From: a candidate division FCPU426 bacterium
GTDB lineage: Bacteria > Oederibacteriota > Muellerivitia > Muellerivitales > Muellerivitaceae
Direction of reading: 5' to 3'
NCBI GenBank assembly: GCA_963738405.1
Contig: CAVTWJ010000004.1
Coordinates: 13,499-77,498, forward strand
DNA: 64,000 nt
Shown: positions 3,905-42,320 of the stretch, piece after piece
Layout: every line of letters starts with the position of its first letter
Numbering within the stretch: the stretch's first letter is position 1
Position numbers and translations under genes: made by a program
Notes under the pieces: generated by a model
The model's database searches: none
Told to the model about the DNA's origin: nothing
Seen by the model: only the letters and a program-made list of their open reading frames with translations

Positions 3905-4262
3905 AGAAGCCTCCTTTTGGCCAAATCGGTTGTGAAGTTTTCTCCTTTGTTCCGGCGCTGGTTTACCGCCACATTCATTCTTTCGCTTAAAAAGTTCGAG
4001 TTAAAGCGAGGGTGTAAAAAATAATGTTCGGACGTTTACCTTTTTTTGGAACCGCTCAAATGATGCCCATGGACTTGGAAAATGATGAATTAACTAAAAA
4101 ATTTTTCAGAGCCCTTGAATTAGAAGTGGCACTTGGTTCAGCCCTTTTGCCAGGAAAAAGGCTGGTTTTGGCCGGGATTAGGGCGAAAGGGCTGCCGCCC
4201 CTGTTTGGTCCTATAATTGTTCCAGCGCTTTGTGATTTTATTTTCGGGAGAGAGGTAAAGCG

Positions 4263-5078
4263 ATGAAACTTACCCCTAGCCGTTTGGTTCTGTTAAAAGC
4301 CGCTTGGGCCTTGACGATTGTTTTTTTATTCAGCGGATGCGCGGAACAACCCGTTCCCCCGGTCTTCTGCCTATACGGCTACCAGCGCCTAGCGGTCATC
4401 CCCTTTGACAACAATACGCAGGACCCGGCCTTGGCCGCCGCCCTGCAGGACGAGATGACAAGTGAGATCGTGAATCTCAACGCCGTGCCCGTGATCGAGG
4501 CGGGACAGGTGGCAGCCTACCTGAAGTCCATCCCCGCGAAAGCATCCGACGTGCCGACGGATTCGGGCTTGCGCGAAAAGATCGCCCAGCATTTTAAATG
4601 CGACATTTTTTTAACGGGTTCGGTGGAGGGATACAACGAGTTCCTCAAGGATGAGGAGCCCCAAAGGTCGGACTCCGGGTGGGGCTTTTACACGGACCGC
4701 AAGGTGATCGTCACCAACAACGCCAAACTGATGGACCCGTCCAGCGGCAGCCTGCTTTGGTTTCGCAATAAGAACTGGGGCTCAAGTTGGCACAACACCT
4801 GGAACCCCCTTCCGATTCCTGAAACCGTGACCCTTCCGGGCCCTTTGGGCCAATTTGTCGATTTGGTTCATTTGGTTCAATACCGGTTGGACAACAAGGT
4901 GGACGTGGAACCCCCTTCGTTGGATGAAAACCCCAGCGGCGCCTTGATCTACCCCCGGAGCAGGGCTTTTGCCGGGCTTCGCCAGAAGGCCATCGTGGCC
5001 GCCGTGGGTTCTTTGGTTTGCGACTTTCAGGGCCATTACAACTGGACGCCGGGGTTAAGGGCCATCCACGCACAATAG
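4263..5078 (+). CDS. Lipoprotein with CsgG/LpoB-like N-terminal fold (hypothetical)
   Basis: Lipobox LFSGC; motif LAVIPFDNNTQDPALAAALQDEMTSEIVNL resembles the CsgG/LpoB family core. Confidence 0.55.
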   Translation: MKLTPSRLVLLKAAWALTIVFLFSGCAEQPVPPVFCLYGYQRLAVIPFDNNTQDPALAAALQDEMTSEIVNLNAVPVIEAGQVAAYLKSIPAKASDVPTDSGLREKIAQHFKCDIFLTGSVEGYNEFLKDEEPQRSDSGWGFYTDRKVIVTNNAKLMDPSSGSLLWFRNKNWGSSWHNTWNPLPIPETVTLPGPLGQFVDLVHLVQYRLDNKVDVEPPSLDENPSGALIYPRSRAFAGLRQKAIVAAVGSLVCDFQGHYNWTPGLRAIHAQ

Positions 5079-5138: not shown

Positions 5139-5165
5139 ATATGTACGGTAATGTTCCGTACATAT
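5139..5165. promoter_or_regulatory. Perfect 10-bp inverted repeat ATATGTACGG-N7-CCGTACATAT immediately upstream of the antitoxin gene: candidate TA autoregulatory operator
   Basis: Palindrome 28 nt upstream of the tacA-like ATG, overlapping an AT-rich -10-like region. Confidence 0.45.
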
Positions 5166-5192
5166 GTTATTCTTAACGTGGAGGTAACGGCC

Positions 5193-5474
5193 ATGGCGAA
5201 AGCCCTTAAAACAAAAGAAGAACGCATCGAACTGAGGGTAAGGCCTCAGGATAAGCGGCTATTGGAAAAAGCCGCCCAAGCGCAAGGATTGAGCCTGAGT
5301 TCCTATCTCGTGACGCGTTCCCTCCATGCGGCCCAGGAAGATGCGATCCCGGTTAAAACCTACCTTCCGCCTAAACGGGACGTGGACTTATTTCTAAGGC
5401 TTCTGGAAAACCCTCCCGTGCCTAACGAAAAGCTTAAGGCGGCGGCACGGCGTTACCAAAAAGAAATATCCTGA
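5193..5474 (+). CDS. DUF1778/TacA-family ribbon-helix-helix antitoxin
   Basis: C-terminal LENPPVPNEKLKAAARRY closely matches the TacA consensus (LDNPPAPNEKLLAAA); RHH-like N-terminus; GGAGG SD. Confidence 0.85.
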   Translation: MAKALKTKEERIELRVRPQDKRLLEKAAQAQGLSLSSYLVTRSLHAAQEDAIPVKTYLPPKRDVDLFLRLLENPPVPNEKLKAAARRYQKEIS

Positions 5475-5483
5475 TCGTCCGTT

Positions 5484-5999
5484 ATGACAGGCCAAAAATG
5501 GAAGTTTGTCCCTATCACGGAAAAACCTAACCTCGAAGCTTTTGACTGCGGCATTTCTGAACTCAATGATTACCTGAAAAAATACGCGGGCCAGAACCAC
5601 CGCAAGGGGTTGGGAAGCACTTATGTCCTCATTCCGGCCGAAGGAGAACCGGTCGCGGCCGGTTATTACACCCTGAGCATGGCCCAGGTGGAATTACGCT
5701 CCCTGCCCGAATCCCACCGTAAAAACCTCCCGAAGTACCCTGTTCCCGCTGTCCGATTGGGCCGCCTTGCCGTTGACCGCCAATGGCAAGGAACTGGATT
5801 GGGGGAGATATTATTGATGGATGCCATCCGCCGGTCTGTTGCCGCCGTCCAATCGGTGGCCGCGAAATATATGATCGTCGATGCGAAAAACGAAAAGGCC
5901 GAGGAGTTTTATTTACGTTATGGGTTTCAACCCTTTGAAGGCGGTTCGTACTCATTGGTAGTGGCCATCGATACGTTAAAAGGACTTTTCGAGAAATGA
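5484..5999 (+). CDS. GNAT-family acetyltransferase toxin (TacT/KacT-like, acetylates aminoacyl-tRNA)
   Basis: 171 aa, acetyl-CoA motif RLAVDRQWQGTGLGEILL; lies 10 nt downstream of the DUF1778 antitoxin, the canonical arrangement. Confidence 0.85.
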   Translation: MTGQKWKFVPITEKPNLEAFDCGISELNDYLKKYAGQNHRKGLGSTYVLIPAEGEPVAAGYYTLSMAQVELRSLPESHRKNLPKYPVPAVRLGRLAVDRQWQGTGLGEILLMDAIRRSVAAVQSVAAKYMIVDAKNEKAEEFYLRYGFQPFEGGSYSLVVAIDTLKGLFEK

Positions 6000-11739: not shown

Positions 11740-12173
11740 ACGAGACGGCCTCCAACTTTAAAGACCGGGTGATGGTTTCCGCGGGCGAAGCCCTGGACGC
11801 GGGCATGTTTTGGCGCGGTAACCTGGCGGGCGCCTTGAAACGCAGGGACTATAAGGGAACCTTCTGGGGAATCCTGGCCTTGAGCCTGTTTCTTTTCTTT
11901 TATGTTTGGCAGCACATGCAGGTGGTGAAGCTCTCCTACGAGGTTCAGGGTCTGCGCTCCCAGAAACAAACTTTGACCAACCAATACTATTACCTCAAGT
12001 ACAAGATGTACGACGTGGACAGCCTCTCCAAGGTGGAATCCATTGCCCGCGATCAGCTGGGCATGGTGACGCCCCGCACCGACCAGGTGGTCATCCTGTC
12101 CGATAACGACTCCCTGGTTCCGCGCTGGCTGACCTGGTGGACTCAAACGATGGATAAGGGAGGCCGCTTGTGA
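11736..12173 (+). CDS. ftsL: Cell division protein FtsL
   Basis: ~145 aa, single TM (GILALSLFLFFYVW) followed by a coiled-coil; positioned between rsmH and ftsI; the start may be a later in-frame ATG (11772). Confidence 0.7.
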   Translation: MNETASNFKDRVMVSAGEALDAGMFWRGNLAGALKRRDYKGTFWGILALSLFLFFYVWQHMQVVKLSYEVQGLRSQKQTLTNQYYYLKYKMYDVDSLSKVESIARDQLGMVTPRTDQVVILSDNDSLVPRWLTWWTQTMDKGGRL

Positions 12174-14380
12174 GCGTGCGTATGCCCTCCTCCCCCCTCC
12201 ACCAACGGCTCTGGATTTTGGAATCGGTCATCTTTTTCGCGCTTTTAGGCGTCGAGGCCCGGTTGGTTTACCTTCAGGTCTTCAAACATTCCGAATACAG
12301 CCAATTGGCTTTCCACCAGCAATACACCTCCAAGGAAACCCAGCCCTCACGGGGCCTCATTGAGGACCGCAACGGGGTTCTTCTGGCCATGAATATCGAT
12401 CTCTATAACGTTTGCGGCCATCCGGACCAGATTCAAGACAAGGCGCACGCCGCGGCGGTGCTTTCGGGGGTCTTGGGGCTCCCCTACGGCACGATCCTCT
12501 CCAAACTCTCGCAGGATAAATCCTTCGTTTGGCTTGCCCGCCAGGTTCCCTTCGAAAGAAGCCAGGCGGTGGAAAGCTTGAAACTCCAGGGGGTGGAGGC
12601 CTTCGGGGAACAGCGCCGGTTTTATCCCGACCGCGACATGGCGGCGCAGGTTTTGGGCTTTACCGGAATGGACAACCAGGGATTGAACGGACTAGAACGC
12701 TTCTACGAAAAAAATCTCTCCGGCCAAAAGGGCCTGGTCATGGCCGAGCGGGACGCGAGGGGAAGGCTGGTTCCCACCGACAACAAGCAGGTCAAGCAAA
12801 GCGTGGAGGGCACCAGCCTTGTCACCACCCTGGATACGACCCTCCAGCATGTGGCCCAGGTGGAGCTCCAAAAGGCCTTCGACAAGTACCGGTGCAAAGC
12901 GGCTTCCGTGGCCGTGATGAATCCCAAGACCGGCGAAATTCTCGCCATGGCCAACCTGCCGACCTTTGATCCCAACCATTTTTCCCAAGTTTCTTCCGAC
13001 GTTTGGCGCGACCGCATGGTGAACGACGAATTCGAGCCAGGGTCCACTTTCAAGCTGGTGACGGCCCTGGGGGCTTTGGAGGAAGGGGTCGTCAACGAGG
13101 ATGATAAATTTTTCTGCGAGAACGGCGAGTACCACACCGATTACGGCCGGGTGGTCACGGACCACGAAAAACACGGCTGGCTGACTTTTAGGGAAGTCTT
13201 CGGTTATTCCTCCAACATCGGCATGGTGAAGGTGGGGGCCAAGCTGGGCAAAGACAACCTTTACCGCTACTGCCAGCGCCTGGGGTTCGGGGTCCCCACC
13301 GGCATCGACCTGCCGGGCGAGGCCGCGGGCAAGCTCCGCCCGGAAGCGCAATGGAGCGGCATCTCCATGACGACCATCCCCTACGGCTATGAGGTTTCCG
13401 CCACGCCGATGCAGATCCTGCGGGCCTACGCGGCGATCGCCAACGGCGGGGTGATGATGAAACCCTACCTGGTCAAGGAGCTGGTCAGCAAAACGGGAAC
13501 GGTGGTGAAAAGCTTCACTCCCCAAAAGGAAAAGCGCATCTGTTCCGAAAAGACCGCCCAGCGCCTGACGGCCATGATGAGGTGGGTCGTCGAGAAGGGA
13601 ACGGGTACGGCGGTGGACCTGCCCGCCTACCCAATAGCCGGCAAAACGGGAACGGCCTACAAGTTCATGAACGGCCACTATTCCAAGTACAACTATGTTT
13701 CTTCCTTCGTGGGGTTTGTTCCCGCCGACAACCCCAAGTTCGTTATTTATTGTTCCTTGGATGATCCCCGGGGCATCTATTGGGGCGGCTACACGGCCGG
13801 GCCCGTATTTAAAGAAGTCGCCAAGCGGGCCCTGTCCTACGCTTTAGTCCCTCCCGTCAACTCGGATTTGGAACAAACGGCCTCTTTGAAAAAACAACTG
13901 CCTTCCTTCGTGGGGCTCACCCCTTCCCAAGGCCGTTTGCTGGGCCAGGACCGCCAGGTGAAAATGAAGTTCACCGGCAAGGGCGCGAAGATCACATCCC
14001 AGATTCCCCCGGCGGGAACCTACATGGTGGACTCTCAAGCCGCCGGGTTGTGCGTCACCCTGACGCTGGGAAACACAGTTTCCGCATTCGCGGCTGGAAC
14101 GGTTCTGAATGGGTCAGTCCCGAACGGGACCGTTCCGAATGGAACAGCCCCGAATGGGGCAGTCCCGAACGGGACCATGCCTGACTTGCGGGGAAAGACC
14201 AAGCGGCAGGCCCTGGCTCTTTTAGCTCCCTTCGGGCTCAAGGTGAATTTCTCAGGCGAGGGAATTGTTCGAACCCAATTTCCGCCGGTCGGACGGTCCT
14301 TGAAAACCTTTAATGCCTGCGATTTGAGTTGCGACATTCCTTCCGTCCGGGTTGACGCGGTCCAGGGGGGGAAATCATGA
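12170..14380 (+). CDS. ftsI: Peptidoglycan D,D-transpeptidase FtsI (PBP3) with a C-terminal PASTA domain
   Basis: PBP dimerisation plus transpeptidase motifs (STFK, SSN, KTGT); C-terminal MPDLRGKTKRQALALLAPFGLKVNFSGEG fits the PASTA consensus; GTG start. Confidence 0.9.
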   Translation: MSVRMPSSPLHQRLWILESVIFFALLGVEARLVYLQVFKHSEYSQLAFHQQYTSKETQPSRGLIEDRNGVLLAMNIDLYNVCGHPDQIQDKAHAAAVLSGVLGLPYGTILSKLSQDKSFVWLARQVPFERSQAVESLKLQGVEAFGEQRRFYPDRDMAAQVLGFTGMDNQGLNGLERFYEKNLSGQKGLVMAERDARGRLVPTDNKQVKQSVEGTSLVTTLDTTLQHVAQVELQKAFDKYRCKAASVAVMNPKTGEILAMANLPTFDPNHFSQVSSDVWRDRMVNDEFEPGSTFKLVTALGALEEGVVNEDDKFFCENGEYHTDYGRVVTDHEKHGWLTFREVFGYSSNIGMVKVGAKLGKDNLYRYCQRLGFGVPTGIDLPGEAAGKLRPEAQWSGISMTTIPYGYEVSATPMQILRAYAAIANGGVMMKPYLVKELVSKTGTVVKSFTPQKEKRICSEKTAQRLTAMMRWVVEKGTGTAVDLPAYPIAGKTGTAYKFMNGHYSKYNYVSSFVGFVPADNPKFVIYCSLDDPRGIYWGGYTAGPVFKEVAKRALSYALVPPVNSDLEQTASLKKQLPSFVGLTPSQGRLLGQDRQVKMKFTGKGAKITSQIPPAGTYMVDSQAAGLCVTLTLGNTVSAFAAGTVLNGSVPNGTVPNGTAPNGAVPNGTMPDLRGKTKRQALALLAPFGLKVNFSGEGIVRTQFPPVGRSLKTFNACDLSCDIPSVRVDAVQGGKS
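14106..14180 (+). repeat. Five tandem 15-nt repeats encoding (V/A)PNGT pentapeptides (linker before the PASTA domain)
   Basis: NGSVPNGTVPNGTAPNGAVPNGTMP encoded by near-identical ccgaa(c/t)gg(g/a)ac units. Confidence 0.6.
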
Positions 14381-32075: not shown

Positions 32076-32883
32076 AACCCTTCTTATCTCGCGGGGCGGG
32101 GTAAGCTTTATCACCTTTCCCGGATTAGGGGATTCAGCCCAATTAACCCAGGCCGTTTCCACACGAGTGGGCGGGGTGAGCCGTGGGAAGATGAAAAGCC
32201 TCAATTTGAGCTACAAGGTGGGGGATGATACGCTCCGGGTTGAGGAAAACCGGACCCTCCTCCTGAAGGCCCTGGGCATTCAAGGGGTTCCCGCAATGGT
32301 AAACCAGGTGCATGGAGACGGAATCCGGCGGGTGGTGAAGGGAGACCGACTGCCCATGGACGGGGTGCTGGGGGAAGGCGATGCCCTGGTGAGCGATGTT
32401 CCCAGGGTTCCTTTGATGATCCTGGTGGCCGACTGTCTGCCGATACTTTTCCATGATCCCGTTCACCGAGCCATCGGATTAGCCCACGCCGGATGGCGGG
32501 GAACGGTGAACCATATCGGGGCGAAGACCCTTTTGAGAATGCAGGAAGAATTCGGCACCCAACCCGCGGATGTCAAAGCGGCCCTGGGCCCCGCCATCGG
32601 AAGCTGCTGCTACGAGGTCGGACGGGACGTCGCGGATCGCTTTCAAGAGGTCTTTCCTTGGGCCGGGGAGGTTTTGGCCGGCACGGAAGCGGACAGATAT
32701 AAGCTCAACCTGGAAGAAGCCAACGCCCGCCAGCTTTTGGAAGTCGGGGTTGTTCCCGAGAATCTATTCCGATCGGGTTTGTGCACAATCAAAAGAAATG
32801 ATTTGTTTTTTTCGTATCGGGCGGAAGCCACACCTGAGCGCCCCACGGGACGGGTTGGGGCCTTGATCATGCTGGCGGGTTAA
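32047..32883 (+). CDS. pgeF: Peptidoglycan editing factor PgeF (YfiH/YlmD family)
   Basis: N-terminal ISRGGVS...SLNLSYKVGDD..VEENR, HG, C-x-x-C-C (GSCCYEVG) and H..G motifs of the YfiH family; start placed at GTG/TTG 32047-32050, overlapping the amidase stop. Confidence 0.8.
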   Translation: MLIPDKPSAETLLISRGGVSFITFPGLGDSAQLTQAVSTRVGGVSRGKMKSLNLSYKVGDDTLRVEENRTLLLKALGIQGVPAMVNQVHGDGIRRVVKGDRLPMDGVLGEGDALVSDVPRVPLMILVADCLPILFHDPVHRAIGLAHAGWRGTVNHIGAKTLLRMQEEFGTQPADVKAALGPAIGSCCYEVGRDVADRFQEVFPWAGEVLAGTEADRYKLNLEEANARQLLEVGVVPENLFRSGLCTIKRNDLFFSYRAEATPERPTGRVGALIMLAG

Positions 32884-32894
32884 AGGAGACGACC

Positions 32895-33092
32895 ATGGGC
32901 TGGTGGAAAGATTTCTGGACGGGTCTCAAAAAGGGGAAGAAAGCCCGGGTTGATAAGCGGAAAGAACAAAGCCGCAGAAAAGGCGACCGCCGCTGGATGG
33001 GCCCGGAAGGTGAAAAACCCAGGGCCAAAAAGGAGCCCCGGCGCAAGAAGGAACGGCGCAAGAAGGCCCGGCGAAAACCCCCAAAGGCCTAA
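32895..33092 (+). CDS. Extremely basic 65-aa protein (K/R-rich, hypothetical)
   Basis: Strong SD AAAGGAGACGACC-ATG; ~45% Lys/Arg; no TM. Confidence 0.4.
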   Translation: MGWWKDFWTGLKKGKKARVDKRKEQSRRKGDRRWMGPEGEKPRAKKEPRRKKERRKKARRKPPKA

Positions 33093-33140
33093 TAACCCCC
33101 CTCCCCGGCCAGACATAGCCTGTGATTGGGGTGGTTAACT

Positions 33141-33340
33141 ATTTCTGTTAAACCGACCCTCAAAACTGTTAAACAAGTTCCGAAAACTGTTAAACAACAC
33201 CAAAAAACTATTAAACTGCGCCAAAATTTCTGTTAAACAACCTCTAAAAACTGTTAAACTAGGCCTGATTTCTGTTAAACAGGCCTTTTTATTGGGTAAA
33301 CACCGTTCTTTTATCTGTTAAAATTTAATTTCTATTAAAC
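33141..33340. repeat. Iteron-like array: ~10 copies of CTGTTAAAC (within 21-nt units AAAACTGTTAAACAA...) at 21-22 bp phasing in an AT-rich intergenic region
   Basis: Copies at 33145, 33166, 33187, 33208(v), 33230, 33251, 33272, 33292(v), 33315, 33332; regular two-helical-turn spacing. Confidence 0.7.
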
Positions 33341-33362
33341 AAACCCCCTTCCTGTTCATCGC

Positions 33363-35003
33363 ATGGAGGATATATTGGAAAAAAGCAACCTTAAGTCCCT
33401 GGCATGGCTGGATAAACTGTCCGCCTTCGCCGCTGAACGGGAAAAGAACCCCGACATCCCGCATGCCGAGCTGGCCAAGGCTCTGGGCCACGATAAGGCC
33501 ATGGTGTCTTTTCTGAGGTCCCTCAACAGTTGTTTTGATCCCGCCGCCGTGGAAAGGGTCCGGCAGGCCGCCCAAGGGCCCCACCCCTTTACCCTTTCCT
33601 TTAATAGCGCCTTGGAACTGGCCAAGCTGAACGGCAAGGTCCCCGACCTGCCGGGGGCGTTTCAGGACGCCCTGGAAGTGGTCCTTGCCCGCCATCTGGC
33701 CAAAAGGCATATCAAGAACCTGGTGGATTGGATTGCCAGCGGCAAACCGGCCAAGGATTTTGACCCTAAAAAGATCAAGGGAAATAAGCAGGATTCCGAC
33801 GAACCCGAAACCGACGAGGATGAGGGTGATGAGGAAGAACCCAAAGAGCAAACGGAAGATAAAAAGCAAAAGAAAGGGAAGGGTATCAGAAAGGCCCTTA
33901 AACAGCTTCAAAAAGCAGGCGCTAAAGGCCTGTTTGTCGGCCTCAAATCCATGGCCGGTATGATCCACAGATACGTTCATGAAGCCGCCAAGACTACGGC
34001 GGGCTATTTTTGCCCCCTCCACTCACGTTCCAGCCGAAATCATGATTCCTCTACCAGGCCAAACCTCTTTAGGTTCCTGGGCCATTGGGGGCTCTACTGG
34101 TTTTGCGTCTTTTTTGCCTATAGCGGTATCGTCGGCCTCCTCAGTTACATCGGGCACTTTATCCCCTTCGTGGGCCCCTGGATCGACAGCGCCTGGGCGT
34201 TCCTGGTCCACCTGCTGATCCGCCTGCCCTTTTGGCTCTTGCGCCAGATATTTGCCAAGCCCTGGCTGGTTTTCATCCTTGGCGTGGCTTTGGTTTGGTG
34301 GATTCACAAGGAATTCAAGGCCGGGTTATTGGCCACCCTTGTCGTCGCCGCCCTGTTGGCGGCGGGATGGATTTTTAGGGGAGTATGGGGGCCCTATCTG
34401 TCATCGATTGTTTCAATTTCATCACCGAAGACCGTGGAAGTACCCGTCTCCACAAAGACCTCACAACCAGCCGTCCCAGCGGTTTCGGCGATCATTTCAA
34501 AGATCGAGCCGAAGCTTACTGCAAAAAAGCCTAAAAAGCCCCTGTCTCCCGTAGCCTTGGCAAAGGGAGATAACTCGGGGGTCTTAGTTATTCCACCCGA
34601 GTCCCAGCCCAGGGTTCAGCAAGAATCGTTGTTCGTAAATGGCTTCATTGGTGATCTTTTCGGGCCCAGCTACCACGACCTTCAGGGTTGGATGGGGAAT
34701 CTGCAAAGCGAAATCACGCCAGGCTATTGGGACCAGTTTGTTTACGAAAATTACCCGCCCGCCAAGATGCAGGAAATCCAAGACAAGAAATATTTGGTTT
34801 TCTTCAAACTCTCAGATCCCGTGAAATGCGTGAGGGCGGACGTGTTATTGGACGAGTTTCAGGTGGAAGGGGTGGTGACCACCAAAAGCGACCTGCATTA
34901 TCAGGGGGAGGTGGTTTCCACCGTGCCCGTGACCGTAATTGTGGATGTGCGCCAGGGCCTGAAGGGCCTGGAAGTTTGCAAGGTTGATAGAGTCCGACCA
35001 TGA
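33363..35003 (+). CDS. Hypothetical 546-aa protein: N-terminal HTH-like domain, acidic/basic linker, 4-TM core, C-terminal soluble domain
   Basis: N-terminal NPDIPHAELAKALGHDKAMVSFLRSL resembles an HTH; DEPETDEDEGDEEEPKE and KKQKKGKG tracts; hydrophobic segments 230-340. Confidence 0.5.
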   Translation: MEDILEKSNLKSLAWLDKLSAFAAEREKNPDIPHAELAKALGHDKAMVSFLRSLNSCFDPAAVERVRQAAQGPHPFTLSFNSALELAKLNGKVPDLPGAFQDALEVVLARHLAKRHIKNLVDWIASGKPAKDFDPKKIKGNKQDSDEPETDEDEGDEEEPKEQTEDKKQKKGKGIRKALKQLQKAGAKGLFVGLKSMAGMIHRYVHEAAKTTAGYFCPLHSRSSRNHDSSTRPNLFRFLGHWGLYWFCVFFAYSGIVGLLSYIGHFIPFVGPWIDSAWAFLVHLLIRLPFWLLRQIFAKPWLVFILGVALVWWIHKEFKAGLLATLVVAALLAAGWIFRGVWGPYLSSIVSISSPKTVEVPVSTKTSQPAVPAVSAIISKIEPKLTAKKPKKPLSPVALAKGDNSGVLVIPPESQPRVQQESLFVNGFIGDLFGPSYHDLQGWMGNLQSEITPGYWDQFVYENYPPAKMQEIQDKKYLVFFKLSDPVKCVRADVLLDEFQVEGVVTTKSDLHYQGEVVSTVPVTVIVDVRQGLKGLEVCKVDRVRP

Positions 35004-36151: not shown

Positions 36152-38887
36152 ATGAAGAATCAGTCCTTGTTGATTACGATCGGGCTTTTGTTTTTTGCAG
36201 CTTGCTTCTATATTTCCTGCGGAAGCGGCAGTCCCACGGCGCCGGCCCCCACCCCCGTTCCCGTGCCCACCGATACCCCTTGCGGTTATCCGGGCAATAC
36301 CTGCACAGTGACCTCCACCTTTACCTCGACCGATACGCCTACCTCGACCCATACGGCCACGACCACTTATTCGCCCACCCAAACCAATACCCCGACCCAA
36401 ACCTTCACCTGGACGGTCACGAAAACCCCGACGGACACCTTTACGTCAACTTCCACCTTTACGATAACGGATACACCGACAATAACGGATACACCCACCC
36501 ACACCCACACCTACACCTTCACCTTCAGCCCCACGGAAACCAGGACTTCGACGGAAACCTTCACACCGTCCGATACCCCTACGATTACGGATACCCCCAC
36601 CGTATCCAACACGCCCACCGTGACCAATACCCTGACCAGTACTACCACGCCCACTGTCACGAACACGGTGACCTGCACGAACACCCCGACCAACACTTCC
36701 CAATATTCCTCTACCTATACACCCACGATCACTCGCACGGCCACGATCACCTTAAGTCCCACCAATACCTCCACGTCCACGCCAGTGGGTATTTTCGTCA
36801 GCGGTTCGGTGACCTACACGGGGGCGGGAACCGTCTCGTCGGCCAACCCCATCGTGATTATCGCCTCCAATCCCCTGGCAACGAACGGGATGCCCGAAAC
36901 GGTTATCACCACAAACGGAGGCTCTTATTCTTTCGCGGTGACCGGTGGGAATAATTCCATCGTCTGCTGGTACTCGAACAAAGCGCCGCTCAATTGCCTG
37001 ACGAATGGCGGGGCCCCAGAGCAGGGGAATTACATGGGCTGGTACAACGGGGGCGCCCAGCCAGTCACGATCAATATCACTTCCAGTACTTCCAACATCA
37101 ACGTCACGATTGGTTCGGGCAGCGCCCTCCAGGGGGTTGCCGGGCCGGTGAGTTACCTGGGATTGAACAGCGTCGATAACAACCACCCGGTGATCGTGGA
37201 ACTCTTCAAGGACAGCGGCTACAGCACCCTGGACCAGTCGATGGGCCCGGGCGAGGAAGAGTTCAGCTGTGCCCATTCGACTTACAACTTCGCCTCCAGC
37301 AACAACGGGTCGACCGAATACCTGCTGGCTTTCCAGGACAACGCGGGTACGGGCCGCGTGAACGCCGCCAGTCAGGTTCCCGGCGGGGACCCGATGGTTT
37401 TGGCCGGATCCGTGGTGATTGGTACCTCAACGACCAAGAATATCGCTTTTCCCACTTCCACGCCGACCATGACGGTCACCTCCACCCCGATCCCCGCCCC
37501 CTACGTCTTCAAGGGAACGATCCATTACACCGGCGCAAAAAGCACTGCGGGCCAATACCTATTGATGATGGCCACCACCTGCATCAGCTGCGGCGGCAAC
37601 GATATGGTCACTTGGTCCACCCCGGGAACCTCGAGCGCGGTTTCCTATACCCTCAACCTGCCCTCCACCGGCAGTTACGTGGTCATGGGCATGTTGTCCA
37701 ATGATCCGGTCATGAACGGGCCGCCGCCGGTGGGCGCGCCTTACGGATTCTACGGAACAGGCACTGTTTGTTTGGGAGGAACACCCACGACCCTGGCCGT
37801 GAACGGGCCTACCACGCAGACTGCCAACATGTCTTTTGGGGACAGCTGCGAACTGAATGGTGTTTCGGGGACCATCAGCTACACCGGCGCGGGCTCAGTG
37901 GGCAGTAATGGTAACTCGCTGTATGTGACGGCTTATACGGATTCAAGCTACTCGACTCAGATTTCGGGACCCGGAAACAACTCCGTGACGGTGAATGGGG
38001 GCACTTATAACGTGATCAACACCGGCGGCGCCCCCACTACCGTCTATCTCCAGGCTTATTACGGGTCCGACAATAACAACGCCCCGGCAACCTGTGACGC
38101 GGTGACCAATTTAGGCCCGGTGGCCTTCAACACCACCACGACCACCAAAAATATCACGCTTTCCGACGCCTTCCTCTACAACTGCACGAACACCCTCTCG
38201 GGCACCGTCAATTGGACAGGGGCCGGCACGGTCAACACGTCCGATCCCATCGTCGTGCATGCCGTCCTTTGCCCCAGCGGGGATTGCAACAACCAAACGA
38301 ACTACTCTTGCGCAGTGACCCAAAACGGCGGGAACTATTTCGTGGGTTTTCCCGCAGCGGGATCCGTTTACGTTTCTGAGGAATACGTGGCCACGGGAAG
38401 GATTTGGAACAATTGGGATTACAACATCGGAAGCTACGCCGAAAATGCCGATGGAACTTGTTCCATCGAGACCGGCAATAATGGAAACCCCGTCATCGTC
38501 AGCGGAGCCGCCGTTTCAAACCTGAGTTTCGGTTCCAGTTGTGGACAACTCCAGGGTTATACCGGAACCGTGACCTATAACGGTTCCAAGGGCGCCCCGA
38601 CTTGCAATGGAAACCCCGGACGCCAAATTTGGGTCTCGGCCACGTATGGAAACAGTAAAAACGAGTTTTCCTATTGGGATACTAGCGTATGCAATAACGG
38701 TGACACCTATAAGATCATCTATGGAACAACGAGCGCGAGTCTATATTTGAGGGTCTGGTTTGATGACCAGGGTACGGGTGACCACCAGCCGCAGACCGGC
38801 GAGTCTGGGACCGTAGTGGGTCCCTACGTTACGAGCACCAACCCAACCTCTATCAACATTTCCTTTGATGATTCCCAAACCTGGTAA
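36152..38887 (+). CDS. Large repetitive surface lipoprotein: lipobox, ~180-aa Thr/Pro-rich tract, then ~5 repeated ~130-aa domains (G-x-[VI]-x-[YW]-T-G-A-G)
   Basis: Signal peptide plus lipobox YISC; TPT/TDT low-complexity region; recurring GSVTYTGAG, GTISYTGAG, GTVNWTGAG, GTVTYNGSKG units; terminator follows. Confidence 0.7.
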   Translation: MKNQSLLITIGLLFFAACFYISCGSGSPTAPAPTPVPVPTDTPCGYPGNTCTVTSTFTSTDTPTSTHTATTTYSPTQTNTPTQTFTWTVTKTPTDTFTSTSTFTITDTPTITDTPTHTHTYTFTFSPTETRTSTETFTPSDTPTITDTPTVSNTPTVTNTLTSTTTPTVTNTVTCTNTPTNTSQYSSTYTPTITRTATITLSPTNTSTSTPVGIFVSGSVTYTGAGTVSSANPIVIIASNPLATNGMPETVITTNGGSYSFAVTGGNNSIVCWYSNKAPLNCLTNGGAPEQGNYMGWYNGGAQPVTINITSSTSNINVTIGSGSALQGVAGPVSYLGLNSVDNNHPVIVELFKDSGYSTLDQSMGPGEEEFSCAHSTYNFASSNNGSTEYLLAFQDNAGTGRVNAASQVPGGDPMVLAGSVVIGTSTTKNIAFPTSTPTMTVTSTPIPAPYVFKGTIHYTGAKSTAGQYLLMMATTCISCGGNDMVTWSTPGTSSAVSYTLNLPSTGSYVVMGMLSNDPVMNGPPPVGAPYGFYGTGTVCLGGTPTTLAVNGPTTQTANMSFGDSCELNGVSGTISYTGAGSVGSNGNSLYVTAYTDSSYSTQISGPGNNSVTVNGGTYNVINTGGAPTTVYLQAYYGSDNNNAPATCDAVTNLGPVAFNTTTTTKNITLSDAFLYNCTNTLSGTVNWTGAGTVNTSDPIVVHAVLCPSGDCNNQTNYSCAVTQNGGNYFVGFPAAGSVYVSEEYVATGRIWNNWDYNIGSYAENADGTCSIETGNNGNPVIVSGAAVSNLSFGSSCGQLQGYTGTVTYNGSKGAPTCNGNPGRQIWVSATYGNSKNEFSYWDTSVCNNGDTYKIIYGTTSASLYLRVWFDDQGTGDHQPQTGESGTVVGPYVTSTNPTSINISFDDSQTW
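36270..36790 (+). repeat. Low-complexity ACC/ACG-rich coding repeat (Thr/Pro linker of the lipoprotein)
   Basis: Imperfect tandem acg-ccc-acc / acc-gat-acc units encoding TPT, TDT, TNT. Confidence 0.5.
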
Positions 38888-38937: not shown

Positions 38938-39192
38938 TTTGGAGTGGGCGTCAAGGAACCAGTCGCCGGAAAATATCATGGTTGTATATAGGTGATATAC
39001 TGGCCGCATTGAAAAACCCGGCAGTTGAAACGGGATATTAACGGCAGGGCGTTATTGAACGGGATGGTTATCGATGGAACCTGAAGTCCAATAATAAAAA
39101 AACCGGGTCTGGTCCCACGCTCTCCAGCGTGGAACAGGGCTCAATTCACCGCAGAATTGAGCAGGGATTAACCATTATTAGTACGAGTTAGG

Positions 39193-39220
39193 TGTTCACG
39201 ATGGGGACCCGTCGTGGACA
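39193..39220. repeat. Palindromic element copy (TTCACGATGG-GGAC-CCGTCGTGGACA, 2 mismatches)
   Basis: 41 nt upstream of the first AT-rich small ORF. Confidence 0.6.
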
Positions 39221-39260
39221 GGTAACATGGATTGGGAAACATTGAAAGAGGATGTGAAGT

Positions 39261-39665
39261 TTGGCAAAAAATGAAAAAATCCAAATATTATTATTCCCTT
39301 TTCTGTTCCTTGGGTTAATGATTATTTTTCCATATATAAGTTTTGGATTTAATAAATGGCTTGGGAGAAATTTAGGGAATTTTTTATTTTTTCTACCGCA
39401 ATATGTATTTCCATATGACGGGTATTTCAGAAGTGGCCCGTTTGATGAAACTGCCCACTTAAGTCTTCATCCGCTTGGTTTGCCAGGATGGATTGCATCG
39501 TTGATTCATTGGACGATTGTCATTTTTATTTATTATTGGCTTACTCGAAAATTATCCTTTGGAAAATCACTTCTAATGTTTTGCTTTTTGGCTATTTCAT
39601 CATTAGTAATTGTCTATTTTTCATTGGGGGTTTTTGGATGGAATTTCAGCATTGATGGACCATAA
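39261..39665 (+). CDS. Small hypothetical membrane protein (AT-rich island gene 1)
   Basis: 134 aa, ~33% GC, 3-4 TM segments; AAAGAGGA SD region. Confidence 0.5.
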   Translation: MAKNEKIQILLFPFLFLGLMIIFPYISFGFNKWLGRNLGNFLFFLPQYVFPYDGYFRSGPFDETAHLSLHPLGLPGWIASLIHWTIVIFIYYWLTRKLSFGKSLLMFCFLAISSLVIVYFSLGVFGWNFSIDGP

Positions 39666-39678
39666 AAAAGGAATTCTC

Positions 39679-39708
39679 TTGTCCACGACGGGGACCCGTC
39701 GTGGACAA
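39679..39708. repeat. Perfect palindromic element TTGTCCACGACGG-GGAC-CCGTCGTGGACAA
   Basis: 13-bp arms, 4-nt loop, followed by AGAAAAAAGG; 43 nt upstream of the next ORF. Confidence 0.7.
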
Positions 39709-39750
39709 AGAAAAAAGGCGTAAAGTGTTATCGGCAATAGGAGATCGAAA

Positions 39751-40086
39751 ATGGATCGCAAAATAATCGCCGAAGTTATATTCGCATTTTTAGGAGTATG
39801 GATGATCGCCCTCCCTTCATTCTTTTTAAAGTTCCTCGCAAAGGGGGCACAGTTTAATTATGAAAATTTAAAATCAAATTTAGATAGGATTAAAAGGGAA
39901 GGGCCGGCAAATCTGAACGAAAAATTAGCGACGAAATTTGGTCCCAACATCTTTCAAAAAATCTCGATGAATAAGGATGTTTATAAACCCCCGACGGAAA
40001 CACAAAAGTGGTTAATGAGATCATTGGGGATATTATTCGTTTGCATATCTCTTGGCGTTTTATTCAATCTGATTGGGGTTAGATGA
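39751..40086 (+). CDS. Small hypothetical membrane protein (AT-rich island gene 2)
   Basis: 111 aa, N- and C-terminal TM helices, AT-rich; GGAGATCG SD-like sequence. Confidence 0.5.
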   Translation: MDRKIIAEVIFAFLGVWMIALPSFFLKFLAKGAQFNYENLKSNLDRIKREGPANLNEKLATKFGPNIFQKISMNKDVYKPPTETQKWLMRSLGILFVCISLGVLFNLIGVR

Positions 40087-40149
40087 AACATTGTTAATTT
40101 TTCTCTCCAGTTTCTTAACCGATTTGAGGACCGTTTGGTTGAAGCTTGT

Positions 40150-40178
40150 TTGTCCACGACGGGGACCCATCGTGGACA
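40150..40178. repeat. Palindromic element copy TTGTCCACGACGG-GGAC-CCATCGTGGACAG
   Basis: One mismatch; followed by AAAAATAAAG; 58 nt upstream of the next ORF. Confidence 0.65.
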
Positions 40179-40235
40179 GAAAAATAAAGTGTAAGTATTT
40201 CATTTGGACGGTATTACGGGAAAAAGGATTAGAAT

Positions 40236-40769
40236 TTGGAAACTAAAACGGAAATAAATCCAAACGAATTTAGAACACTTTACCGTCCCCGTTTTGCTGA
40301 TTGGCTCATTGCTTGTCTTTTTTTCTTAACTTTTGGTTTGGGACTTCCATCTATGTTGGTTGAAAAAAGTTTGGATGTTTGGGGAAAGAACATTTTATCT
40401 TTGGATTCGATTGAAAGGTTTTTTGGGTGCGTTGTAGTAATCGGAATGGAAATAATTTTATTGAAAGAATGTTTAAAATCTTGGCTTTCTGAAGTTAGTG
40501 TTAATTCTATGAGACTAAAATTAAAAATTCTTTCTTTTGAAAAAATAATTGAATGGAAAACTCTTCATTCTATTTCTCTTTCGCCCAATAGCTGGGGAAC
40601 AGTTGATTTGTATTTGTTTTTTCCAAATAAAAAGAAAATTAGGTTTTGGTCGGCCTTTGGTCCTGCAAGTAGATTTATCTACCAAGGTATAAAAGAATTC
40701 AGACCTGATCTGATTGATGAACTGAAAAAGCAGGGGAAAATGCATGAGTATAAAGGTGTATTTATTTAA
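40236..40769 (+). CDS. Hypothetical membrane protein (AT-rich island gene 3)
   Basis: 177 aa, TTG start with AAAAAGGA SD; two N-terminal TM helices; AT-rich. Confidence 0.5.
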   Translation: METKTEINPNEFRTLYRPRFADWLIACLFFLTFGLGLPSMLVEKSLDVWGKNILSLDSIERFFGCVVVIGMEIILLKECLKSWLSEVSVNSMRLKLKILSFEKIIEWKTLHSISLSPNSWGTVDLYLFFPNKKKIRFWSAFGPASRFIYQGIKEFRPDLIDELKKQGKMHEYKGVFI

Positions 40770-40783
40770 ACCAGATACTTAAC

Positions 40784-40812
40784 CTGTCCACGACGGGGAC
40801 CCGTCGTGGACA
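40784..40812. repeat. Perfect palindromic element CTGTCCACGACGG-GGAC-CCGTCGTGGACAG, followed by a second small IR (ACAGTCAGT..ACTGACTGT)
   Basis: Same family; lies directly 3' of island gene 3. Confidence 0.7.
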
Positions 40813-40920
40813 GTCAGTACCACTGACTGTCTTATTCGAAAATGTTTCCCCGGAACTTTCTAGCTTTCTCAAAAAATTTTAGGGGAATGATAAACCTGTA
40901 CTTACCTGGTAAAGTTACCC

Positions 40921-40950
40921 CCTGTCCGCAAAAGGAACCCGTTGTGAACA
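40921..40950. repeat. Degenerate copy of the palindromic element (CTGTCCGCAAAAGG-AAC-CCGTTGTGAACAA) with an AAAGAAAA tail
   Basis: 32 nt upstream of ORF 40982. Confidence 0.35.
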
Positions 40951-40981
40951 AAGAAAATGCCGATAAGGAGCCTTCCAAACC

Positions 40982-41305
40982 ATGACTTCGCGCCCGCCCC
41001 TTTTGATTGTGCTCTGCTTCCTAGGACTCGTTGGTTGTTTTCTGAACATGATGATGGTTTTATCCCCGCCTGTGCGCGAGATCGCGCCCTGGTTTCCAGG
41101 CTACCTATCGGCAGCGACGGCCCTAGCGGCCGCCTGCCTGGGGGGACTGTGGTTTCTCAAACGTTGGGCCCTATGGGGATATACCTTTTATTTTCTGGCC
41201 CAGCAATCCGTCTTTCTTTTGCTTCATCGCTGGGATGCCCATGCCTTGATCCTTCCCTTGGCCGTGACGGCTACGGCCTGGGCCTATTCAAAGAATATGA
41301 AGTGA
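40982..41305 (+). CDS. Small hypothetical 3-TM membrane protein
   Basis: 107 aa; hydrophobic helices (LLIVLCFLGLVGCF, AATALAAACLGGLWFL, LILPLAVTATAWAY); AAGGAG SD; preferred over the overlapping frame 40957..41313. Confidence 0.45.
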   Translation: MTSRPPLLIVLCFLGLVGCFLNMMMVLSPPVREIAPWFPGYLSAATALAAACLGGLWFLKRWALWGYTFYFLAQQSVFLLLHRWDAHALILPLAVTATAWAYSKNMK

Positions 41306-41315
41306 GCGTTTAAAC

Positions 41316-42320
41316 TTGGCTGCCTTCCTCCCTTTTCGGGGAACCCTCCATCCGCGCGGCTCCTTTGATTTGAATCTCACCCTTCTTTGCGGACAATGTT
41401 TCCGCTGGAAAAAATCAGCCGAGCCCGGGGTTTTGGAGGGGGTGGCCGGTGGGGCCTATTGGCGGCTTCGCCAGGAGGACTTGGTTATTCACTGGGAGTG
41501 CTCATCCCACGAAGTGAAAAAGGTACCGCCATCCGATTGGATTGCCGACTACCTGAATCTGGGCCAGGATCTGTCCGATTTTGAGAAAAATTTTCAGGAT
41601 CACCCCATCCTTTCCTTGCCCCTGCGACAGTTGGGAGGTTTGCGCTTGGTGAGACAGGAACCCTGGGAATGCGCCGTTTCTTATCTTTTTGCTCAAAGCC
41701 TTTCCGTCAAGGTGATTCAAAAGGCGCTGGATCGGTTTTGCGCGAAATTTGGAACAGAAATCTCCGAGGCGCCGGGCGCTTTTGCTTTTCCCGAACCGCG
41801 GGAAGTGAGCCTGTTAAACCCCGGGGAGCTCCGGCCCTACGCCAACAACAACCGGGCCCGGGCGGAACGGATCGTGAAATTGGCCCGGACCTTGGAATCC
41901 AGGGTTCTGACCCTGGAGCACCTGAAAACCATACCCTGCGATGAGGCGAGGGAAGCCTTGACGGGATTGGAAGGCATTGGGCCCAAAATCGCCGATTGCA
42001 TCCTTCTCTTTTCGCTGGACCATGGTTCGGCCTTTCCGGTGGATCGCTGGGTCTTGAGGGCCCTGAAACAACATTTTCCAGGGGTACGGTTTCTTCAGGC
42101 GGTCGGCTTGAATCCAACCCCCGCCCAATATCCCCGATTAGTCCAAAAGGCCCGAGCGGTCTTCGGCCCATGGTGCGGTTTGGCGAGCGAATATCTTTTT
42201 TTATATTTCAGGCTTTTGGAAGATCCGGCTCTGCGATTGGAACTGGGAAAAGAATTGGTGAGTCCCTTTTCAACCGTTATAGGGTTCAAGACTAAAAGGA
42301 AGGCTTTCAAAAAAGCCTGA
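41316..42320 (+). CDS. ogg: 8-oxoguanine DNA glycosylase/AP lyase (OGG1-type, HhH-GPD superfamily)
   Basis: N-terminal OGG domain (LNLTLLCGQCFRW); HhH-GPD motif GLEGIGPKIADCILLFSLDHGSAFPVDRWV with catalytic Lys and Asp; TTG start. Confidence 0.75.
   Translation: MAAFLPFRGTLHPRGSFDLNLTLLCGQCFRWKKSAEPGVLEGVAGGAYWRLRQEDLVIHWECSSHEVKKVPPSDWIADYLNLGQDLSDFEKNFQDHPILSLPLRQLGGLRLVRQEPWECAVSYLFAQSLSVKVIQKALDRFCAKFGTEISEAPGAFAFPEPREVSLLNPGELRPYANNNRARAERIVKLARTLESRVLTLEHLKTIPCDEAREALTGLEGIGPKIADCILLFSLDHGSAFPVDRWVLRALKQHFPGVRFLQAVGLNPTPAQYPRLVQKARAVFGPWCGLASEYLFLYFRLLEDPALRLELGKELVSPFSTVIGFKTKRKAFKKA

Follow-up and report, generated by a model that had tools for sequence, protein, structure and literature searches.

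A helically phased direct-repeat array upstream of genes for membrane proteins with a predicted ParB-type DNA-binding domain in candidate division FCPU426

Why should ten short direct repeats, spaced with the regularity of the DNA helix, lie in an AT-rich gap immediately upstream of a gene for a membrane protein in the chromosome of an uncultured bacterium? We addressed this question for a 64,000-nt stretch from a candidate division FCPU426 bacterium (contig CAVTWJ010000004.1, positions 13,499–77,498; hereafter the window), in which the repeats occupy positions 33141–33340 and the downstream gene ends at 35003. As judged by comparison with homologous loci, array and gene form a two-part module that is conserved in FCPU426 and apparently undescribed; no description of the family or the module was found in the searchable literature. 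We consider it somewhat better than an even chance that the array serves the encoded membrane protein as its cognate platform, for autoregulation and membrane tethering, and that it replaces the cytidine triphosphate (CTP)-driven spreading of canonical ParB. The features of the module in the window are:

33141–33340, forward strand: repeat array of ten direct-repeat units, (A/T)4-CTGTTAAAC-(A)(A), with a period of 21–22 bp; the core is kept and the spacers are variable
33145–33280, forward strand: core block of seven adjoining in-phase units, six CTGTTAAAC and one CTATTAAAC
33297–33324, forward strand: predicted sigma70-like promoter formed by variant units 8 and 9 (consensus scan)
33366–33377, forward strand: Shine-Dalgarno (SD) sequence GGAGG (33366–33370) and probable TTG start codon (33375–33377), a layout common to homologues
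33375–33767, forward strand: predicted N-terminal ParB/Noc/KorB-type helix-turn-helix (HTH) DNA-binding domain, aa 1–131
33768–34070, forward strand: charged, probably disordered linker, acidic DSDEPETDEDEGDEEEP followed by basic KKQKKGKGIRKALKQLQKAGAKG (read from the translation)
34071–34379, forward strand: transmembrane (TM) region with 3–4 hydrophobic segments, aa ~233–335 (hydropathy scan)
34587–35003, forward strand: C-terminal VirB8/DotI/IcmL-like NTF2-fold domain, aa ~405–542, probably periplasmic, with the stop codon

To define the array, the window was searched for CTGTTAAAC with at most one mismatch, and positions 32700–33600 were read directly. Six units are exact (starts 33145, 33166, 33187, 33230, 33251 and 33272), three carry one mismatch (33208, CTATTAAAC; 33315, CTGTTAAAA; 33332, CTATTAAAC), and one, at 33293 (TGGGTAAAC), has three mismatches yet is in phase; all lie on the forward strand. 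An earlier, sequence-only reading of this DNA had placed ten copies here, which is correct, but had counted only two of them as variant. The unit-to-unit steps are 21, 21, 21, 22, 21, 21, 21, 22 and 17 bp, so that the spacing of 21–22 bp given in that reading describes the first nine units, but not the last step, which puts unit 10 (33332) out of phase. Nine matches with at most one mismatch fall within 200 bp, whereas the match density elsewhere in the window predicts 0.0126 (Poisson P = 2e-23). One further exact CTGTTAAAC occurs in the 64 kb, at 41811, which corresponds to chance level, and the search revealed no second cluster in the window. The information content of the array resides in the 9-mer and in the A/T tract 5' of it. 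The 12-nt spacers vary between units, which are therefore not recent perfect duplications; a conserved core with variable spacers is the signature that selected binding sites, rather than fresh duplication, would be expected to leave.

The array region is AT-rich, with 31% GC over positions 33140–33345 versus 53% for the window, and Tandem Repeats Finder reports periods of 21 and 43. No forward-strand open reading frame (ORF) of at least 60 aa runs across the array, and since the alternation of 21- and 22-bp steps would break any reading frame, the array is non-coding. The predicted RNA fold of the array is no better than that of shuffled sequences (z = -1.29), and the cumulative GC skew has no turning point at the array. 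The window contains no parS site (at most two mismatches), no match to an Rfam family and no detectable tRNA. The core GTTAAACA resembles a parS half-site, GTGAAACA (consensus TGTTNCACGTGAAACA), a similarity that we treat as a lead only.

The gene that follows most likely starts at TTG 33375 and encodes a product of 542 aa, given that GGAGG precedes this codon, that homologues have a like layout (GGAGG-N6-TTG also in loci L002, L003, L005 and L012) and that the database protein P0001 is 542 aa long. The alternative start, ATG 33363, opens the 546-aa ORF of the sequence-only reading; that ORF exists, but its first codon is probably not the one used. Searches with the 546/542-aa protein against Pfam, NCBIfam, PHROGs and PADLOC returned nothing meaningful, and the N-domain profile gave only noise against PDB sequences (flagellar cap, PLC-beta). 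It was fold comparison, together with a bridging profile, that linked the domain to ParB. Modelled with AlphaFold2 from 16 family sequences, residues 1–136 are all-helical, with a predicted local distance difference test (pLDDT) score of 87.9. Against 1.84 billion representative proteins, the N-domain profile matched ~90 family members and next reached proteins bearing ParB_N, at E-values of 6e-8 to 1e-4; in these, Pfam ParB_N covers residues 1–100 and the N-domain match follows directly, at ~100–230. Aligned with hhalign, the N-domain family and the ParB_N-linked group match with 99.5% probability (E 1e-22), and the profile of the ParB_N-linked group in turn matches structures of Noc and Spo0J along the HTH and the helices behind it. 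Based on these profile links, the N-terminal domain is a ParB/Noc-type DNA-binding domain, with the predicted HTH at aa 30–53 and the recognition helix at ~aa 41–53. The 'HTH-like' segment noticed earlier is thus indeed of a DNA-binding kind, but forms part of a full ParB-type domain of ~131 aa.

ParB_N itself has no match in the window protein or in 15 family N-domains, and since the DNA-binding domain begins at residue 1, the CTPase/clamp domain of ParB is absent; the relatives P0090–P0110 do carry ParB_N. Two other readings of the N-domain were considered. An extracytoplasmic function (ECF) sigma factor, suggested by the likeness of the array motifs (GGAAC/TGAAAC) to ECF -35 elements, was dropped, as Sigma70_r4 gave only insignificant matches (E ~0.009 in 2 of 15 members) and the fold is ParB-like. 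Trans_reg_C, the OmpR-type winged helix, has no Pfam match in the window protein or in the family members scanned.

A linker of variable length and sequence across the family connects the N-domain to the membrane region, for which hydropathy gives 3–4 segments in the window protein and one in many homologues; the membrane domain recognized earlier is confirmed, its count of four TM segments is less certain. The C-terminal domain of the window protein is of the VirB8-type, NTF2-like fold. The VirB8-like and PDZ-like folds of the C-terminal domains suggest that these are probably periplasmic, also in the single-TM homologues, from which an odd number of membrane passes would follow.

The protein family is rare. 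A word-indexed protein search gave seven full-length matches and then nine short ones, and the ten matches found among 185,579 species-representative genomes are all metagenome-assembled genomes (MAGs) of candidate division FCPU426. One such MAG, MFD03726.bin.1.149, holds five paralogues (L002, L003, L005, L007 and L008), on contigs of 28–176 kb. Another 22 loci came from metagenomes of peat and bog, and exact look-ups contributed L001, L034 and L035. No homologues were found in PLSDB (72,556 plasmids), INPHARED (50,697 phages) or IMG/VR. Of the 68 family representatives that are 195 aa or longer, 60 have at least one TM segment after the N-domain, among them tail-anchored members (~200–230 aa) with nothing beyond the anchor. 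The C-termini fall into three classes: VirB8-like; a ~270-aa module with a weak PDZ match; and none, in the tail-anchored proteins of ~210 aa. Since the C-termini vary while a membrane anchor nearly always follows the N-domain, the invariant core of the module is array, ParB-type head and membrane anchor.

A truncated second copy of the family gene, starting from the GKPAQDFDP motif, lies at L002 11826–13214; it has neither the DNA-binding domain nor an array. Upstream of it are two short ORFs that by eye resemble a HicAB-type toxin-antitoxin pair. An IS110 transposase is encoded at L002 1851–2951, with related copies near L007 and L008.

Is the array a constant companion of the gene? In the main survey, all 30 loci with readable upstream sequence have an array directly upstream of the gene and on the same strand, and L034 and L035, beyond the main survey, likewise carry one. 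Conservation of the repeat in relatives had been set beforehand as a test, and the pairing of array and gene was found in every relative of the family examined. The surveyed arrays comprise 24 distinct sequences of 8 to >20 units each. Their period, determined by regression, is 21.27 +/- 0.19 bp (range 20.87–21.63; 10.63 bp per turn), and the phase is kept across skipped units, which leave gaps of 42/43 or 63–65 bp. Eight arrays share the layout '4 units – 42-bp gap – 4 units'. The idea of a one-face, phased array of the cooperative-binding kind is supported, the period of two turns being kept in relatives. All units lie on the coding strand, and their polarity relative to the gene is kept in 23 of the 24 arrays. 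We found no consistent dyad symmetry in the units over the 24 arrays, and on this ground a palindromic (dimer) site was rejected; the kept polarity and the lack of dyad symmetry fit monomers bound head to tail.

Over the 345 kb of homologous loci and the window, arrays of at least 80 bp whose period approaches a multiple of 10.7 bp occur only in front of family genes, which, with the lack of a second cluster in the window, argues that the motif is not a dispersed satellite. A single L007 array, interrupted by an IS3-family element, departs from this in appearance only. This array of GCCGGGAAC units (L007 4024–5915) is divided into blocks at 4024–4486 and 5794–5915 by an element of ~1.3 kb with two overlapping minus-strand ORFs (115 and 281 aa) that are IS3-family orfA/orfB-like; it represents a natural insertion mutant. 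In L002 and L003 the array abuts the SD sequence, and in L002, L003, L008 and L009 there are signs of very recent higher-order duplication, with super-units of 43–85 bp. No upstream array was found at P0105/L037 and P0104/L039, which are membrane-anchored and keep ParB_N; P0105 shares the VirB8-like C-domain although it has no array.

The core motif differs from locus to locus: CTGTTAAAC in the window, and elsewhere TCGGTAAAC, CTGGTAAAC, CCGGTAGAC, CTTGTTAAC, CAGTGACAAA, CCTATTGGCAT, CGTTGAAC, TGTCCACC, TCGGTATCAT and others. The five paralogues of the single MAG have five different motifs. Loci with higher N-domain identity tend to have more similar motifs (Mantel r = 0.42, p = 2e-4), and near-identical recognition helices share cores (L006/L016, L025/L029, L008/L009 and L010/L024/L030). 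Each paralogue has a core motif of its own, and motif and DNA-binding domain diverge in parallel. The comparative support for the module, which belongs to an uncultured phylum, is unusually strong.

We also predicted promoters, by sigma70 consensus scans only, and the promoter code of the FCPU426 phylum may differ. In the window, the sole sigma70-like site found in the intergenic gap lies within the array and consists of a -35 TAAACA (33297–33302, unit 8), a 16-nt spacer and a TG-extended -10 TGtTAAAAT (hexamer 33319–33324, unit 9), and unit 10 would fall at about +1 to +16 of this predicted promoter. In L004, L010, L022, L024, L025, L028, L029 and L034 a strong promoter-like site immediately precedes the array (10–11 of 12 matches in L004, L010, L025, L028 and L029), which would then stand between promoter and gene and be transcribed. 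In L007, L013, L015, L018, L020, L021 and L035 the promoter-like site falls between array and gene. The adjacency of array and gene, the phase and the polarity are conserved; the regulatory geometry is not.

In four loci (L004 683–730, L010 6289–6335, L024 about 2695–2740 and L028 532–585) the array is preceded by a near-consensus promoter, TTGACA, 17–18 nt, and TAAAAT, TAATTT or TACAAT, followed by GATTTTGGGG (GATTTGGGGG in L024). The window keeps only a remnant of this leader, GATTGGGG, at about 33124. Promoter plus GATTTTGGGG leader was rejected as a family-wide feature, being present in only ~4 of 23 arrays.

The presence of a ParB-type head, a near-universal TM segment and an array in every locus suggests that the array is the platform of the encoded protein, and the ParB-type domain together with the conserved pairing makes the downstream membrane protein, as proposed earlier, the most plausible cognate binder. 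We propose that: (i) one ParB-type head would bind each asymmetric unit, head to tail; (ii) the bound heads would all lie on one face of the DNA, since the units recur every 21.3 bp or two helical turns, and this face could lie against the membrane; (iii) multivalency would come from a hard-wired row of 8–30 sites in place of the CTP-driven spreading of canonical ParB, and possibly also from oligomerizing membrane or periplasmic parts, VirB8/DotI-like here and PDZ-containing in others; and (iv) the occupied array would feed back negatively on the gene, since it overlaps the predicted promoter (units 8–10 in the window) or, in other loci, lies between promoter and gene. Together, these steps would yield a nucleoprotein patch of set size by which the chromosomal locus is held at the inner membrane. 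The position of the array next to its own gene would be explained by loading in cis during co-translational insertion, in which the N-terminal domain emerges first while the nascent chain enters the membrane.

A more far-reaching version of this proposal is that FCPU426 bacteria have a sequence-addressed, multi-locus anchoring of the chromosome to the envelope, with several orthogonal 'ParB-head' proteins each on its own array. We put this forward tentatively and would rate its chances well short of even. Such anchoring could possibly reach envelope or division structures via the VirB8-like or PDZ periplasmic domains; in the window, the module sits right after ftsZ and an amidase gene.

Several observations weigh against the platform-and-tether proposal, at least in its simplest form. 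In L008 (7307–7859) and L009 (7147–7804), 13–16 units of 43 bp precede tail-anchored short members, and each unit holds two distinct conserved boxes, GATAAAC(T/C)GCCCACAT and a CCGGTAACATCTGCCGG-like box; the latter resembles the motif of another paralogue class (L034, CTCGGTAACAT), and the two boxes may mean two binders or heteromeric binding. The L035 array (455–720) keeps the helical register seen elsewhere but at double site density, with CCACTAC(C/A)GG-type sites recurring every 10.75 bp, or four times in 43 bp. Because of these arrays, one monomer per 21 bp is not a universal rule. The predicted promoter precedes the array at some loci and follows it at others, so that no single regulatory geometry holds. 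The linker between DNA-binding domain and membrane is ~100 residues long, and membrane geometry alone would therefore not force the sites onto one face. The co-divergence of motif and protein is confounded by the common descent of gene and array, and the comparison with array-less ParB_N proteins covers only two relatives.

The genomic setting of the module was evaluated from 34 ORFs scanned with Pfam, a subset of those in the window. The module lies in housekeeping chromosome, directly after the division and cell wall (dcw) cluster: mraZ-rsmH-ftsL-ftsI-mur-ftsW-ftsQAZ is followed by genes for a polysaccharide deacetylase, an AmiC-type amidase and PgeF, and then by the module. Behind it come the gene of an AraC regulator, that of a secreted Pro/Thr-rich protein and a patch of low GC that encodes small membrane proteins, and OGG, a sigma54 two-component pair, HU, glycosyltransferases and FabG/FabF lie further downstream. 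Among the scanned ORFs we found no Rep, ParA/ParM/TubZ, relaxase, integrase or type IV secretion system (T4SS) genes. A ParA-like protein was also not found among the shared neighbour families, nor were VirB4, VirB6, VirB9/10 or VirD4 among the scanned ORFs or the neighbours of homologous loci. The module has no universal conserved neighbour, other copies occurring in unrelated contexts (in L001, after argS).

Several rival explanations can be set against the proposed platform. A ToxR/CadC-style transmembrane regulator, with a periplasmic sensor, the array as a long autoregulatory operator, the real regulon elsewhere and tethering incidental, would account for the predicted order of cytoplasmic DNA-binding domain, TM segment and variable extracytoplasmic domain. 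Signalling families, too, typically pair a conserved N-terminus with a variable C-terminus, predicted promoters adjoin the array or are overlapped by it, and ToxR is known to bind tandem direct repeats. It is nevertheless unlikely: the tail-anchored members in L006, L008, L009 and L016 keep large arrays without any extracytoplasmic domain, 8 to >30 phased sites are far beyond the needs of an operator, the window has no second motif cluster, no conserved downstream target gene was found, and the position of the promoter relative to the array is not fixed. Since binding by the encoded protein is something we infer, the array might instead be occupied by another factor (a nucleoid protein, RNA polymerase or a sigma factor, or a soluble regulator), the membrane protein being the regulated gene only. 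The resemblance of the window units to -35/-10-like hexamers (TAAACA ... TGtTAAAC) and the two different boxes in L008/L009 would agree with this. A common trans factor, however, cannot explain paralogue-specific motifs within one genome, it leaves the co-divergence of motif and N-domain unexplained, and the array-less relatives differ precisely in domain content, which together make this reading improbable. Even less probable is an element acting at the RNA level, in which a long 5' leader transcribed from the array would use its repeated motif as a platform for a protein or small RNA or in translational control. Strong sigma70-like promoters just upstream of the array in five loci (L004, L010, L025, L028 and L029), the location of all units on the coding strand and the abutting SD in L002 and L003 could be read this way, but a period of 21.27 +/- 0.19 bp that stays in register where units are missing belongs to the DNA helix and not to RNA, other loci have the predicted promoter downstream of the array, neither Rfam nor folding gave a signal, and the partner protein has a DNA-binding fold.

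The sequence-only reading had named plasmid or chromosome-II-type origin iterons, a classical partition centromere and the relic of an integrated element as candidates, and iteron-like ~21-bp direct repeats in an AT-rich gap, a layout like that of R1 parC, with repeats flanking the promoter upstream of the binder's gene (PMC2241845), and insertion sequence (IS) elements near some loci do recall such systems. We give these candidates hardly any credence. The scanned ORFs include no Rep, ParA/ParM/TubZ, relaxase or integrase gene; the locus follows the dcw cluster in a housekeeping stretch, five modules occur in one MAG on contigs of up to 176 kb, the plasmid, phage and viral collections hold no relatives, PHROG and PADLOC gave no matches, and the GC skew does not turn at the array. 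The AraC gene and the low-GC 'island', which had been taken as possible partners in such an element, are not conserved beside other modules. That the array is a non-functional, slippage-prone satellite that arose by chance in the gap can be all but dismissed: recent duplication of 43–85-bp super-units in four loci and the insertion tolerated by the L007 array would be in keeping with a satellite, but in the window the core is kept while the spacers vary, 24 independent arrays share position, phase and polarity despite complete motif turnover, and such arrays are absent elsewhere in the 345 kb of loci and the window.

A number of further observations were made around the module and its homologues. 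A highly Lys/Arg-rich ORF of 65 aa (32895–33092) ends 50 bp before the array; it is a putative gene with neither a Pfam nor a PHROG match and with no counterpart at any other module locus. The secreted protein downstream of the module (36152–38887, 911 aa) has a signal- or lipoprotein-like start, long Thr/Pro-rich 'TxT' repeats and no Pfam match; in L025 and L027, 60–72-bp tandem repeats with an A/C-rich consensus similar to that of its repeats precede the family gene by ~1 kb. The low-GC patch (39000–41000; 37–39% versus ~53%) contains three small hydrophobic ORFs (39261–39665, 39751–40086 and 40236–40769) that are not conserved beside other modules. A related gene for an outer-membrane beta-barrel is found downstream of the family gene in four loci only and not in the window (L002 10053–10829 and 13707–14423; L005 1896–2657; L007 8915–9625; L010 12963–13610); the copies match Pfam OMP_b-brl with E-values down to 6e-6, just under the gathering score. 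A few kb before the dcw cluster, a TacA-like antitoxin (PF08681) and a GNAT acetyltransferase form a TacAT-type pair (5151–5999), and a 30-bp tandem repeat of 2.3 copies (GTTCCGAATGGAACAGCCCCGAACGGGACA; 14102–14169) lies within the 3' part of the ftsI-like ORF (12170–14380).

A scan of viral contigs for CTGTTAAAC-N12-CTGTTAAAC gave 30 loci, three of which were read. These IMG/VR sequences (L041 3283–3460, L058 1–123 and L060 2932–3090) contain perfect 21-nt coding repeats in giant-virus genes, encoding heptads such as KPKKPTV and EEPVKQK, and were rejected as unrelated; 21 nt equal seven codons, and the matches are therefore coincidental.

If the platform-and-tether proposal is correct, what would it add? 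The systems known to attach a chromosomal locus to the membrane are few (Noc, RacA, RocS and RicO), and all are peripheral and use dispersed sites. The present module would differ in being an integral-membrane solution with a ParB DNA-binding head but no CTP clamp, in having its multivalency written into the DNA as a phased array, and in the presence of several mutually orthogonal protein/array pairs per genome. It bears on what the ParB CTPase domain is needed for, since this domain is apparently replaceable by site multiplicity, and on a possible influence of transertion and of loading in cis on where binding sites are placed. The 24 natural protein-motif pairs provide material on how a ParB-type HTH changes specificity. 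Multi-locus anchoring, if true, would be a new principle of bacterial chromosome organization, and the modules would be a natural set of orthogonal DNA-membrane tethers, whose protein/array pairs could serve as synthetic tools.

How does the module relate to known systems? It shares with iteron origins the tandem direct repeats of 17–22 bp in an AT-rich region, but in place of an adjacent Rep gene and a replicon context its neighbour is a membrane protein with a ParB-type domain. The C-terminal domain likens the window protein to VirB8, DotI, IcmL and TraM, from which it differs in that no T4SS genes were found among the scanned window ORFs, in that its N-terminal cytoplasmic part is a 131-aa DNA-binding domain instead of a short tail, and in that other family members replace the VirB8-like domain by a PDZ-containing one or by none. 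The transmembrane regulators ToxR, TcpP and CadC combine a cytoplasmic N-terminal DNA-binding domain, a TM segment and a periplasmic domain, an order that the window protein may share, and bind tandem direct repeats near the promoter. Their DNA-binding domain is an OmpR-type winged helix, whereas that of the present family is ParB-type, and the present arrays are far longer and strictly phased and also accompany tail-anchored members without a sensor domain.

The likeness to ParB, Noc and KorB lies in a DNA-binding domain of the same fold with detectable, if remote, sequence homology. Noc links specific DNA sites to the membrane (bioRxiv 10.1101/2021.02.11.430593), and the window protein would likewise join specific sites to the membrane. 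It would do so, however, without the ParB_N CTPase/clamp domain, and hence presumably without a CTP switch, sliding or spreading; it is integral in the membrane, where Noc uses a CTP-gated amphipathic helix; and its sites would be asymmetric direct repeats in one array by the gene, as opposed to dispersed 16-bp palindromes. No ParA partner is seen in the window either (34 ORFs scanned). The protein is a member of the ParB superfamily through its DNA-binding domain only, since the CTPase domain and the palindromic site are absent and no ParA-like protein was found among the scanned ORFs. RicO of S. aureus is a DNA-membrane tether, and RocS of S. pneumoniae has been named as another (bioRxiv 10.64898/2026.03.06.710092). 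In these proteins and in RacA of B. subtilis, as is proposed for the present family, an N-terminal specific DNA-binding domain and C-terminal membrane attachment bridge loci to the membrane. They attach peripherally, by an amphipathic helix or DivIVA, whereas the present proteins have true TM segments; they use dispersed single sites near the origin instead of one dense phased array in cis; and they are encoded by single-copy genes instead of multiple orthogonal paralogues with periplasmic domains.

Close parallels for the array itself are the type II/III plasmid centromeres R1 parC-ParR and pBtoxis tubC-TubR, and also the omega-protein heptad arrays, in which, as is predicted for the window, direct repeats (~10) lie upstream of, and overlap the promoter of, the binder's gene. 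R1 parC has five 11-bp iterons on either side of the promoter (PMC2241845), and the '4 units – gap – 4 units' layout of eight arrays mirrors this arrangement of 5 + promoter + 5. The role of the array would likewise be both structural and autoregulatory, as for parC-ParR and tubC-TubR. The differences concern the binder, here a 542-aa membrane protein with a ParB-type HTH and not a small soluble ribbon-helix-helix or winged-HTH protein; the lack of a motor gene (ParM, TubZ or ParA) among the scanned ORFs, the genes downstream being those for the AraC regulator and the Pro/Thr-rich secreted protein; the chromosomal location, with several orthogonal copies per genome; and the period of 21 bp, or two turns, versus 11–12 bp. 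By analogy, the module would work like a centromere-type autoregulatory array of the parC-ParR or tubC-TubR kind combined with a DNA-membrane tether.

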